A DNA stretch of 64,000 nt from Fidelibacterota bacterium (GCA_016783665.1 JADHWC010000004.1:1934-65933); one strand, 5' to 3'; positions 62,133-64,000 are shown, counted from the first letter of the stretch. A program made the numbers and translations. The notes: generated from the sequence alone by a model not told the origin.

Positions 62133-62318
62133 ATGCTTTTACAGTGGATCATAGTGGGAATAATTATTGTTGCTGCGGCAACTGTTCTGTTAATCAGATT
62201 TTTAAAAACGATCAAAAAACCACAATCGGTTTGCGATAGCTGCATGATGAAGGATCGGTGTTTGACGGACTTTGATTTTGCCGATAATGAATCAGATGAC
62301 TTTCCCTGTCGGGAGTAA
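62133..62318 (+). CDS. FeoB-associated Cys-rich small membrane protein
   Basis: 61 aa, N-terminal TM, CDSCMMKDRC. Confidence 0.75.
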   Translation: MLLQWIIVGIIIVAAATVLLIRFLKTIKKPQSVCDSCMMKDRCLTDFDFADNESDDFPCRE

Positions 62319-62330
62319 GCCTTTTATTCT

Positions 62331-62459
62331 GGTTGCAGGGCTCCTGCTCTGCAACCGATACGGATAGTCTGTCCCAGAGCACCTGCCCGACCTGTCAGGC
62401 GGGAAGCCCCGGAACGAGAACGAAAATGACCTTCCGAAGGTTTTAAACCTTCGGAAGGT
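62331..62459. repeat. Cluster of REP/MITE-like palindromes
   Basis: ggttgcag...ctgcaacc (62331-62356), cctgcccg...caggcggg (62382-62403), and perfect accttccgaaggttt-t-aaaccttcggaaggt (62429-62459). Confidence 0.7.
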
Positions 62460-62590
62460 TTGGATAGTGCTTGTTGATTTTATAATTGTGAAATAATTCC
62501 TGCCTTAACAGCAATTTTTGCTGTATTTCTCTATATCCTGCAATATATATGATAATTTGCCCTGTTTTTACTTTTATTCCAGTAAATATC

Positions 62591-62671
62591 CTTGAACATC
62601 GCCGGTTTATGCTTGACCGGCAAGATTATCGAATTCATTTGATCAGTGTCCGGTTATGCCAGCCGTTAGAT
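62591..62671 (-). other. Degenerate attC-like site of cassette 3
   Basis: Minus strand ATCTAAC-ggctg-gcataaccggac ... gccggtcaagc ... GTTCAAG. Right arm is imperfect. Confidence 0.5.
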
Positions 62672-63595
62672 TTCAAAATTCTATCTAGCTTTTAGACGTC
62701 CTTCTTCGAGATTTCTTAGGAGGCATTTTCTTTTCTATTGTTGTTTTCGGTACTGGTGTTCTTCCAGAAGCTTTAGGTTTTTTAACTGAGACTTTTTTAG
62801 CAGTAGCTTTCTTTTTTGCTGTCCTCTCTGTGACTGGAGATTTGCTTTTAGTTATTTCTTTAGTGACGGGACTCTCAATAGAATTCACTTTCTGCTCTGT
62901 ACCATTCTGTTCAGCTTTCTTGCGCGCTTCCTCAAACGATTTAAGTGCTTGCAATGCTTGTTGGTACGGTGCGACATCACGAATAACACAGACGCCTGGT
63001 AGGGATTCACCAGTGGCTCTATTCGGTATATAGGCGGAAACGACTCCACATATTTCCGTGATATCTCCGACAATAGTGAACGCTGGCCCACCGCTGACAC
63101 CATTTATTGCAACACCATCTACGAGATAAGAGCTTTTCCCTTCGAGCCAGGAGCTAATTCTTCCTGTAAAAAAGCATAAATCATCTGGTGCAATGGCTGG
63201 AAAACCACACCAACCTATCTCTACACCCTGTTTCTTTCGTTTATCCTTGTCTATCACTTGCAAAGAGTTTTTCTCAATAGGACACTTCTCGGGATGAAAT
63301 AGGATTATAGCAAGGTCTACGGATGGGTATGTAAAAATCACCCTATTTGCCATTTTTAACATCTTTGTCTCTTTCGAAGCGTAATGAAATAGCTTGATAG
63401 GATCCTCCCAATCATATGCATGTTCGATAACATGAAGTGCCGTTGCCACTCCGCAGAATCCCGTTGATTCTCTATAGAATAACTGAAAGCCTGTCCCAGA
63501 ACCTCGTGGAGTAGACACCTTAAATACATATGGCTTAATCAACTCCAGTGCTTTTGTCCAGGTGATGCTAGTCATAATGTTCTCCTGAAATCTAA
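62597..63595 (-). mobile_element. Probable solitary integron-type gene cassette 3
   Basis: 12-bp perfect inverted pair cgttagatttca (62664-62675) and tgaaatctaacg (63586-63597) brackets a single ORF. GTTAGAT core lies directly before an AGGAG RBS. Confidence 0.65.
62685..63575 (-). CDS. Trypsin-like serine protease with Lys/Arg-rich low-complexity C-terminal tail
   Basis: GSGTGF, TALHVI (His), DLAII (Asp), NGVSGGP (Ser). No signal peptide. Tail KKKATAKKVSVKKPKASG...KKSRRRTSKS. Confidence 0.8.
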   Translation of the reverse strand: MTSITWTKALELIKPYVFKVSTPRGSGTGFQLFYRESTGFCGVATALHVIEHAYDWEDPIKLFHYASKETKMLKMANRVIFTYPSVDLAIILFHPEKCPIEKNSLQVIDKDKRKKQGVEIGWCGFPAIAPDDLCFFTGRISSWLEGKSSYLVDGVAINGVSGGPAFTIVGDITEICGVVSAYIPNRATGESLPGVCVIRDVAPYQQALQALKSFEEARKKAEQNGTEQKVNSIESPVTKEITKSKSPVTERTAKKKATAKKVSVKKPKASGRTPVPKTTIEKKMPPKKSRRRTSKS

Positions 63596-63681
63596 CGATG
63601 TCTATGTTACGTCACCGCTCATTAACACTTTCAAAATTGCAAGCAAATCCTTTCATTGAAATAAAACGAAAGGAGCATTAA

Positions 63682-64000
63682 ATGAATCAAAATCAACTCG
63701 ACCAAAAACGTGAATGGATCAAAGGCAAGTTTATTGTCGGGATTGACCCAGCCAGAGACAAACATCAGGCTTTCATGATCGACGGCAGTGGTTATGCAGT
63801 TGGTAAGACGTTCAGTTTTACTCATAATGCAAAAGGATTTCATGAACAGTTATGGTTTAAACTCAGCAAGTATTTGGAACCTGAATTTATCCACCCTGAC
63901 CATCTCATCTTTGCAGTAGAAGCCGCAATCGATTTCTGGCAACAATTAGTAGATTATCTTTATCGGCAGGGGTATTCAGTTGTCATTGTCAGTCCTTTGA
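63682..64000 (+). mobile_element. IS110-family transposase/recombinase, 5' part (truncated by window edge)
   Basis: Manual translation after an AAGGAG RBS: MNQNQLDQKREWIKGKFIVGIDPARDKHQAFMID...FTHNAKGF...FAVEAAIDFWQQLVDYLYRQGYSVVIVSPL, containing the GID and VEA residues of the DEDD RuvC domain. Not in the ORF track. Confidence 0.85.

Follow-up and report, generated by a model that had tools for sequence, protein, structure and literature searches.

What stands at the end of an integron cassette when the recombination site there appears to have lost one of its halves, and the gene of a mobile element begins where that half should have been? This is the question raised by the locus studied here, in which a gene for a trypsin-like protease, read on the minus strand, is preceded by the core of an attC site and, a short distance further on and in the opposite direction, by the start of an IS110-family transposase gene. 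Bacteria capture genes mainly by means of integrons, and elements that settle in integron recombination sites can block or reshape the exchange of cassettes. To our knowledge, the attC-specific insertion sequences have until now formed one proteobacterial clade, which inserts at the 5′ end of attC.

The reading that we favor, and to which we would give a probability of about 0.85, is that positions 63597-64000 of the window (by which we mean the whole stretch of 64,000 nucleotides analysed) represent the left quarter of an intact and recently active IS110-family insertion sequence (IS) with an IS1111-like architecture, sitting at the R′ end of an attC site.

The locus and the sequences compared

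The window corresponds to bases 1934-65933 of contig C51 of a metagenome-assembled genome (G000) of 2.38 Mb, with 121 contigs and 92% completeness, and this contig stops 646 nt past the window end, within the transposase gene. The continuation was read in a second assembly of the same locus (L049), which shows 6 mismatches against C51 in 6965 nt and reaches 536 nt beyond the transposase stop codon; its positions are converted into window coordinates by adding 57681. The element was compared, by alignment, with full-length homologues in three related genomes (74-84% identity over the 321 residues known from C51) and with 26 metagenome loci, all the sequences compared being metagenome assemblies. 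The hosts of these relatives are Marinimicrobia and Ignavibacteriota genomes, and their transposases are 48-100% identical; a further protein with 71% identity (P0014), labelled at its source as KSB1, represents a relationship at the protein level only, its junctions lying outside the reading. The features of the locus are collected in Table 1.

Table 1. Features of the protease cassette and of the left part of the insertion sequence, in window coordinates unless an L049 position is given.
Feature	Position	Strand	Description
Protease cassette ORF	62685-63575	-	296-aa trypsin-like protein with Lys/Pro-rich tail; weak match to Pfam Trypsin_2, E 0.0014, under the curated cut-off
Own R″ box of the protease cassette, with flanks	62664-62675	-	TGAAATCTAACG; R″ ATCTAAC = 62671-62665
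Cassette 5′ end	63586-63596	-	R′ core GTTAGAT (63596-63590), then TTCA, RBS, ATG
Shared G of target and element	63597	+	Crossover position, with 1-nt ambiguity, from comparison of empty and occupied sites
IS left end, 85 nt	63597-63681	+	Begins GATGTCTATGTTAC; homology among all copies starts here, flanks differ
Left subterminal inverted repeat	63642-63658	+	AGCAAATCCTTTCATTG; partner at L049 7678-7694; conserved in copies
Local hairpin	63648-63674	+	Pairs the transposase RBS (AAAGGAG); consensus match only
IS110-family transposase, first 106 codons	63682-64000	+	Runs off the window end; the full protein (449 aa, P0001) is encoded at L049 6001-7350

The protease cassette and its boundaries

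The motif GTTAGAT lies upstream of the protease gene, at 14 nt from the start codon, and its distance to the ATG of the transposase is 85 nt. By itself the GTTRRRY consensus is uninformative, as it occurs 95 times in the window. The longer sequence TGAAATCTAACG, which occurs once per strand, forms a perfect inverted pair of 12 nt (63586-63597 on the plus strand and 62675-62664 on the minus strand), and this pair brackets the protease ORF as expected of the 5′ end of a cassette and its own R″ box (12/12 nt). The segment that should hold the downstream attC of the protease gene (~62580-62664) showed no fit to the attC family model and no clear palindrome; no intI was found on the window's own contig, and the protease ORF was absent from every relative searched.

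Between feoB and the protease cassette, at 62318-62627, there are short repeats, including a perfect 15-nt palindrome at 62429-62459, which recur at many sites of this genome, as well as in most of the genera searched within the family, and which look like REP-type or terminator repeats.

The insertion sequence

The transposase is recognizable from the part that falls within the window, given that the Pfam domain DEDD_Tnp_IS110 matches its 106 residues with E 5.6e-9, and the 321 residues to the contig end with E 1.3e-24. The complete protein of 449 aa (P0001), obtained by protein search, agrees with the 321 known residues at 100% identity and has precomputed assignments to PF01548 and PF02371; an 82%-identical full-length homologue has the same two domains and reaches 158.6 bits (cut-off 140) with the NCBIfam model NF033542, whose name is "IS110 family RNA-guided transposase". 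Two residues of the DEDD motif, D22 and E80, lie in the window, and both are invariant. The protein thus has the N-terminal DEDD_Tnp_IS110 and C-terminal Transposase_20 domains of the IS110 family, and the element resembles that family in the absence of long terminal inverted repeats and of any multi-base target duplication, and in its site-specific insertion.

In the second assembly the whole element can be followed: an 85-nt left end, the gene for the 449-aa transposase, and a structured non-coding right end of 391 nt, which together give ~1826 bp in this genome, the range among copies being 1811-1842 bp. The non-coding lengths, 85 nt before the ATG versus 383-413 nt after the stop codon (11 copies), correspond to the IS1111-type placement, in which the longer region lies downstream. 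The homology starts in every copy at the position equivalent to 63592-63597 of the window and ends at ...CAAGTAG (L049 7741), the flanks diverging directly outside, and the longest inverted repeat of the element has a 17-nt core, whose two halves stand 45 nt inside the left end and 47 nt inside the right end. All the junctions read are placed directly after a box of xTAAC type, with few variants (CTAGC/CTGAC), and in one orientation.

These results agree with what had been proposed from the window alone (the original prediction), namely that an IS110-family ORF begins about 85 bp from the R′ end of the upstream att site, the ORF matching PF01548, and that no R″ precedes it, none being found between 63597 and the transposase ORF. 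The 17 nt that the same prediction had read as part of the attC (gacgtaacatagacatc, 63613-63597) must instead be assigned to the left end of the IS, where they are conserved in every copy whatever the cassette.

No sigma-70-like promoter was detected above chance. The hairpin at 63648-63674 is terminator-like on the minus strand, where it would face transcripts arriving from upstream cassettes toward the protease gene.

The target and the exact point of insertion

The nature of the target is revealed by the right flanks of the copies. In most of them a 6-nt spacer (GGCAAG or similar) is followed by a 16-nt arm, a loop of ~70 nt and a complementary arm, the latter containing two extra bases, and then by a 5-nt spacer and a GTTRRRY-type box. 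When ten flanks are aligned, 91.9% of the cells in the arms are paired and 9 of the 16 pairs are compensatory; 0 out of 500 shuffles were as good, and slid controls gave 30-47% pairing. The resulting stem has 16 pairs, with two fixed extrahelical bases on the distal (R″-L″) arm. The single-stranded DNA fold energy of one empty attC site was no better than that of shuffles.

A profile built from these flanks recovers uninterrupted attC sites of the same family in this genome, three times on contig C26 and also on C1, C88, C29, C106 and C98, as well as in the other loci analysed. The ORFs around the empty sites are co-oriented, with a stop beside the box on the side of the extra bases and the start of the next ORF beside the other end. 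Integron cassettes are arranged in this way, and the polarity of the site follows: R″-L″ is the arm with the extra bases, and R′ is the end that adjoins the next ORF. As regards the integron itself, this genome encodes an integron integrase (TIGR02249, 483.6 bits) at the end of contig C86, and in the related genome G006 the contig with the IS also encodes one (G006:C33:24923-25708, 400 bits), 4 kb away from the element and read in the same direction as the cassettes. The sites have, therefore, what defines an attC, that is, an inverse core RYYYAAC and a core GTTRRRY at the two ends, an R″ complementary to the 5′ end of its own cassette, and a position after co-oriented ORFs in arrays (on C26 and elsewhere) that are linked to an integron integrase.

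Concerning the integrases, in G006 the family cut-off is exceeded by at least six integron-integrase genes or pseudogenes, on several contigs and some with internal stops, and in this genome a second integrase fragment (G000:C86:19247-19564) lies head-to-head with intI. The intI gene has the same direction as the cassettes (the "inverted" arrangement) in G006:C33 and, apparently, also in C86.

The point of insertion follows from the comparison of empty and occupied sites. On the strand of the transposase gene the former read YTAAC-G-GGCAAG-arm, and the latter YTAAC-G-ATGTC...CAAGTA-G-GGCAAG-arm; as one G is common to both junctions, the element is inserted with the R′ box on one side and the spacer on the other. 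In other words, the element sits at the 3′ (R′) end of attC, with the transposase gene antisense to the cassettes, and the remainder of the attC has been displaced by 1.8 kb and now follows the element's right end. The relatives occupy the same position, which shows that the clade specializes on the R′ junction, and the pattern of the junction is the same even in an Ignavibacteriota locus (L044) whose transposase is only 48% identical. In one locus (L056, Ga0268279_1005573), three copies of the element occupy three successive attC sites of a single array; the copy in G004 has a right flank that is not recognisably attC.

Two other ways of placing the element were considered and rejected. These are: (i) the opposite reading of the attC, which would place R″ at 63590 and the IS, like ISKpn4, at the 5′ end, and against which stand the orientation of the ORFs around at least ten empty sites and also the side of the extrahelical bases; and (ii) a 2-nt core (CT or TA), as the right junction is without such a core and the empty site on C98 fits only the model with a single G.

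In this genome the occupied site is not complete. The right flank in the second assembly (L049 7742-7886) consists of the spacer AACAAG, the arm GCTGAGGTACGGCGGG and a loop up to ...CATCGATCAGC, after which the sequence is unrelated; the fit to the attC model extends over positions 3-95 only (23.7 bits), the distal arm and R″ having been replaced. An IS-free site with the same junction exists on C98, reading CTATAAC-G-GACAAG on the R′ side, and supports the reconstruction of the empty site of the window as TGAAATCTAAC-G-AACAAGG.

The attC remnants of L049 (7837-7886) and of G000:C98:14950-15066 (L078) end at the same point, AACAGCT/ATCAGCT, followed by GGTAAAATAGAAAGGGCGGGTGTCCCGCTCGG...GTCATTAAATTGTGATATG. 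This shared junction takes the place of the R″-L″ arm, and on C98 it runs into the start of a plus-strand gene.

The insertion into an attC, which the window could only suggest, is thus supported, both by the right end in L049, beyond which come the spacer, the L′ arm and the loop of the attC family, and by the sites of the other copies, nearly all of which are at the same attC position, including the one situated 4 kb from an integron integrase. The missing half of the attC was expected beyond the right end and is indeed there, but in truncated form, the distal arm and R″ being absent.

The putative right-end RNA and its candidate guides

The supposition that a non-coding RNA would lie downstream of the transposase and outside the window is supported, as the long non-coding region is found there and its 391 nt are predicted to be structured. 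Ten copies of this region align well, and their consensus fold (columns 35-337) comprises an outer and a second stem, together with the hairpin P3 and with P4, a long stem interrupted by internal loops. In this consensus 94.8% of the cells are paired and there are 8 compensatory pairs, values that refer to a structure predicted from the same alignment and in which the covariation is modest. The right-end region of this genome's copy folds with a z-score of -4.2, and the region matched no Rfam family.

Within this structure, certain short sequences coincide with those around the crossover. Directly 3′ of P3 there is GCCTAAC-AGATTGG, and the best targets have the same GCCTAAC as the 7 nt to the left of their crossover; on the 3′ side of the P4 loop there is GCAAGTA-AGAGTGG, of which GCAAGTA recurs as the 7 nt that precede the crossover at the element's right end. 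Both 7-mers stop at the shared G, and each continues with AGAKTGG. The 5′ side of the P4 loop carries ACATT, which is antisense to the G-ATGT of the left end. Moreover, candidate guide and end have changed together in distant copies, in such a way that L044 has AAGCA together with a right end CAAGCA-G, and L085 and L086 have AAAAT together with a left end G-ATTTC. From these sequence coincidences we infer that the two 7-mers are the target and donor guides.

On the target side the picture is less sharp. YTAAC is constant in all attC sites, and the match of the target-side guide is indistinguishable from this general conservation; exact matching and analogy with the donor module gave no convincing guide for the right half of the target. 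The attC-targeting guide anticipated in the original prediction is upheld only in part: the conserved CCUAAC matches the R′ box, but the candidate in this genome is GCCTAAT (a C to U change) with an insertion, and against 63590-63596 it offers only 4 Watson-Crick positions and one wobble out of 7.

One could then suppose that attC is found in another way, either by the transposase itself or through the folded hairpin of the single-stranded attC, and that the right end serves other roles, such as providing transposase binding sites or regulation. This would accord with the missing right-half guide, with a target match confined to the invariant YTAAC and with the odd placement of the inverted repeats; we nevertheless think it unlikely, firstly, because the 7-mers for target and donor both stop exactly at the crossover and pass into a shared motif, secondly, because the donor side covaries in distant copies, and finally, because RNA guidance has been shown experimentally in both branches of the family (PMC11208160, PMC11187229). 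To this may be added that the site of this genome is without its distal arm, so that a full hairpin would be unneeded if the truncation came first.

If targeting is by a guide RNA, the process could be imagined, by analogy with IS621 and ISKpn4, as a series of steps: (i) the element would excise as a circle, with its joined ends reading ...GCAAGTA-G-ATGTC...; (ii) an RNA from the right-end region would bind the transposase and pair with both partners; (iii) in this RNA, GCCUAAC (GCCUAAU in this copy) would read the target, in which the same 7 nt, the complement of the R′ box, stand left of the crossover; (iv) GCAAGUA, the same as the 7 nt left of the donor crossover, would read the donor, and ACAUU, antisense to the first bases of the left end, would be the donor right guide; (v) strand exchange would take place at the shared G, 1-2 nt from the cleavage point of the integrase; and (vi) the attC would be expected to be disabled as a consequence.

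Copies, signs of activity and footprints

The last 138 nt of the element are found again, with 100% identity, at C88:1-138, where they are followed by a different flank, and contig C104 begins with an internal fragment of the right end. There are, then, at least two insertions in the genome, which explains the break of the assembly inside the transposase gene. No second full copy was found in this genome, only the right-end fragments on C88 and C104, and the left-end 19-mer is unique in it.

The beginning of C104 (G000:C104:1-139, L079) joins nt 23-161 of the right-end non-coding region to an unrelated ORF, without a transposase gene, and may be a piece of the RNA region that stands alone or, alternatively, the result of a chimeric join at the end of the contig. 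A contig of 3118 bp (G015:C2; L030 and L042) has an exact terminal overlap of 141 bp, from which results a circle of 2977 bp with one IS and one cassette (330-aa ORF), whose R″ and R′ match (ACACCTAAC and GTTAGGTGT, respectively); this could be either an assembly loop arising from tandem IS-cassette units or a real circular molecule.

Decayed left ends of the IS, of 54-70 nt and in some cases with pieces of the transposase leader, were observed at the start of cassettes in L033, L034, L037, L038 and L039, the footprints of L033 and L034 being orthologous in two genera. Short "solo" matches to 63591-63645 were considered as possible intact targets and rejected, since they are decayed left ends that retain pieces of the transposase leader.

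The frequency of such footprints in the relatives, together with the truncation of the attC around the window copy, could lead one to see in the latter an inactive relic. We find this improbable, inasmuch as its ORF of 449 aa is intact, a second copy with a 100% identical right end is present at another site of the same genome, and the assembly is broken inside the gene, as expected for a multi-copy repeat. An intact and recently active element is, consequently, the reading that we maintain.

The bases beside the left end

The five bases that precede GATGTC are variable, and CTAAC, ATAAC, CCAAC, TAAAC, CTAGC and CTGAC were all found. Joined to the next four bases of the flank they form a 9-mer, and in 14 of the 22 left junctions, taken from relatives and metagenomes, a copy of this 9-mer, identical or with one mismatch, lies 500-1050 nt away and there forms the R″ box of the neighbouring cassette, in most cases directly after an attC arm. 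The agreement of the junction bases with the R″ box of their own cassette assigns them to the target, outside the IS; thus 63590-63596 is target, and the element starts at 63597.

It could be objected that CTAAC is found before GATGTC in most copies and would be the terminus of the element itself, and that, with GTTRRRY as frequent in the window as it is, the position at the start of a gene would reflect chance or a general intergenic preference and not attC targeting. Such an explanation has very little probability, given that the five bases vary and co-vary with the cassette's own R″ box, that YTAAC-G is already present in the empty sites of the same attC family, and that the right flanks form a covarying attC hairpin. 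An attC target, with its R′ box outside the element, accounts for the junctions.

Implications

As far as the sequences reveal it, this is a new lineage of attC-specific IS110-family elements, placed at the R′ end and unrelated at the protein level to the one known so far. The opposite end of attC, the unrelated protein and the hosts, which are uncultured phyla of marine and sediment environments, all point to a convergent evolution of this lifestyle. Whether RNA-guided targeting of attC has arisen at least twice in the IS110 superfamily, with this clade reading the near-universal R′ core by means of a 7-nt guide and crossing over 1-2 nt from the cleavage point of the integrase, is a proposal to which we would give even odds. 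If it were true, the clade could colonize any cassette boundary of the attC family, fill the arrays and freeze the exchange of cassettes. In any case, the element supplies a natural guide/target pair, with the R′ core as target, for testing how DNA is read by IS1111-type RNAs, and it explains why the cassette arrays break in the assembly of these metagenome-assembled genomes.

Comparison with known systems

The IS1111-attC group, with ISPa21, ISPst6 and ISKpn4, is said to have been described by Tetu and Holmes in 2008, and reportedly also by Post and Hall in 2009. Its seekRNA was shown by Siddiquee et al. (2024; PMC11187229). A stretch of 70 residues in the supplement of PMC11187229 served to locate ISKpn4 in a class 1 integron (CP074549), where it lies antisense to the cassettes, just downstream of qacL, after R″-AATTC and before L″, with its right end by R″. 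Its inverted repeats are of 11 bp and were read as ~9 and 6 nt from the ends, a placement that agrees with PMC3001079 and PMC11187229; for typical IS1111 elements, PMC11187229 gives 7 and 3 nt from the ends.

Our element shares with ISKpn4 and the IS1111-attC group the DEDD transposase, the long non-coding region downstream of it and the insertion in attC antisense to the cassettes, and in both cases several copies can fill one array and degenerate footprints remain. They differ, however, in the end of the site that is occupied, as ISKpn4 inserts at the 5′ end of attC, whereas this element is at the 3′ end, beside the R′ core, with its own left end adjoining. They also differ in the subterminal repeats, which in the IS1111 subgroup are of 7-17 bp and a few bases from the ends, while here the 17-nt core lies at 45 and 47 nt, and in their hosts, which are Proteobacteria for IS1111-attC and Marinimicrobia and Ignavibacteriota (plus the protein relative labelled KSB1) for this clade. 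As regards the RNA, the non-coding region of ISKpn4, taken as a control, contains UAACAAU and UUGAACG, which match the two sides of its target, and the order of right guide, hairpin and left guide read there (UAACAAU, hairpin, UUGAACG) is the same as the one predicted here.

That the element might simply be a member of this known clade (ISPa21, ISPst6, ISKpn4), spread from the integrons of Pseudomonas, as the attC target, the antisense orientation and the long downstream non-coding region would allow (PMC3001079; PMC11187229), is hardly credible when P0001 shows no BLASTP similarity to the ISKpn4 transposase (E 57), so that on BLASTP it does not group with IS1111-attC, when the best plasmid-borne IS110-family proteins are at most 30% identical to it, when four exact P0001 motifs of 7-8 residues are absent from the available portion of the PMC11187229 supplementary sequences, ISfinder transposases included, and when ISKpn4 follows the R″-side spacer at the 5′ end of attC and this element adjoins the R′ box.

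The group IIC-attC introns are likewise specialized on attC and inserted antisense to the transcription of the cassettes, but they are retroelements, with a different mechanism, and insert near the attC 5′ end (PMC3001079).

Finally, the arrangement proposed for the right-end RNA resembles that of the bridge RNA of IS621 and the IS110 group (Durrant et al., 2024, PMC11208160; Hiraizumi et al., 2024, PMC11208158), in which there are two modules, with a same-sense left guide and an antisense right guide flanking a hairpin, one module reading the target and the other the joined ends, and in which the exchange takes place at a short shared core. In IS621, however, the RNA is located in the left end and the dinucleotide CT serves as core, whereas here the RNA region is in the right end, the candidate guides follow the order right guide, hairpin, left guide, and the shared core that can be demonstrated is a single G.
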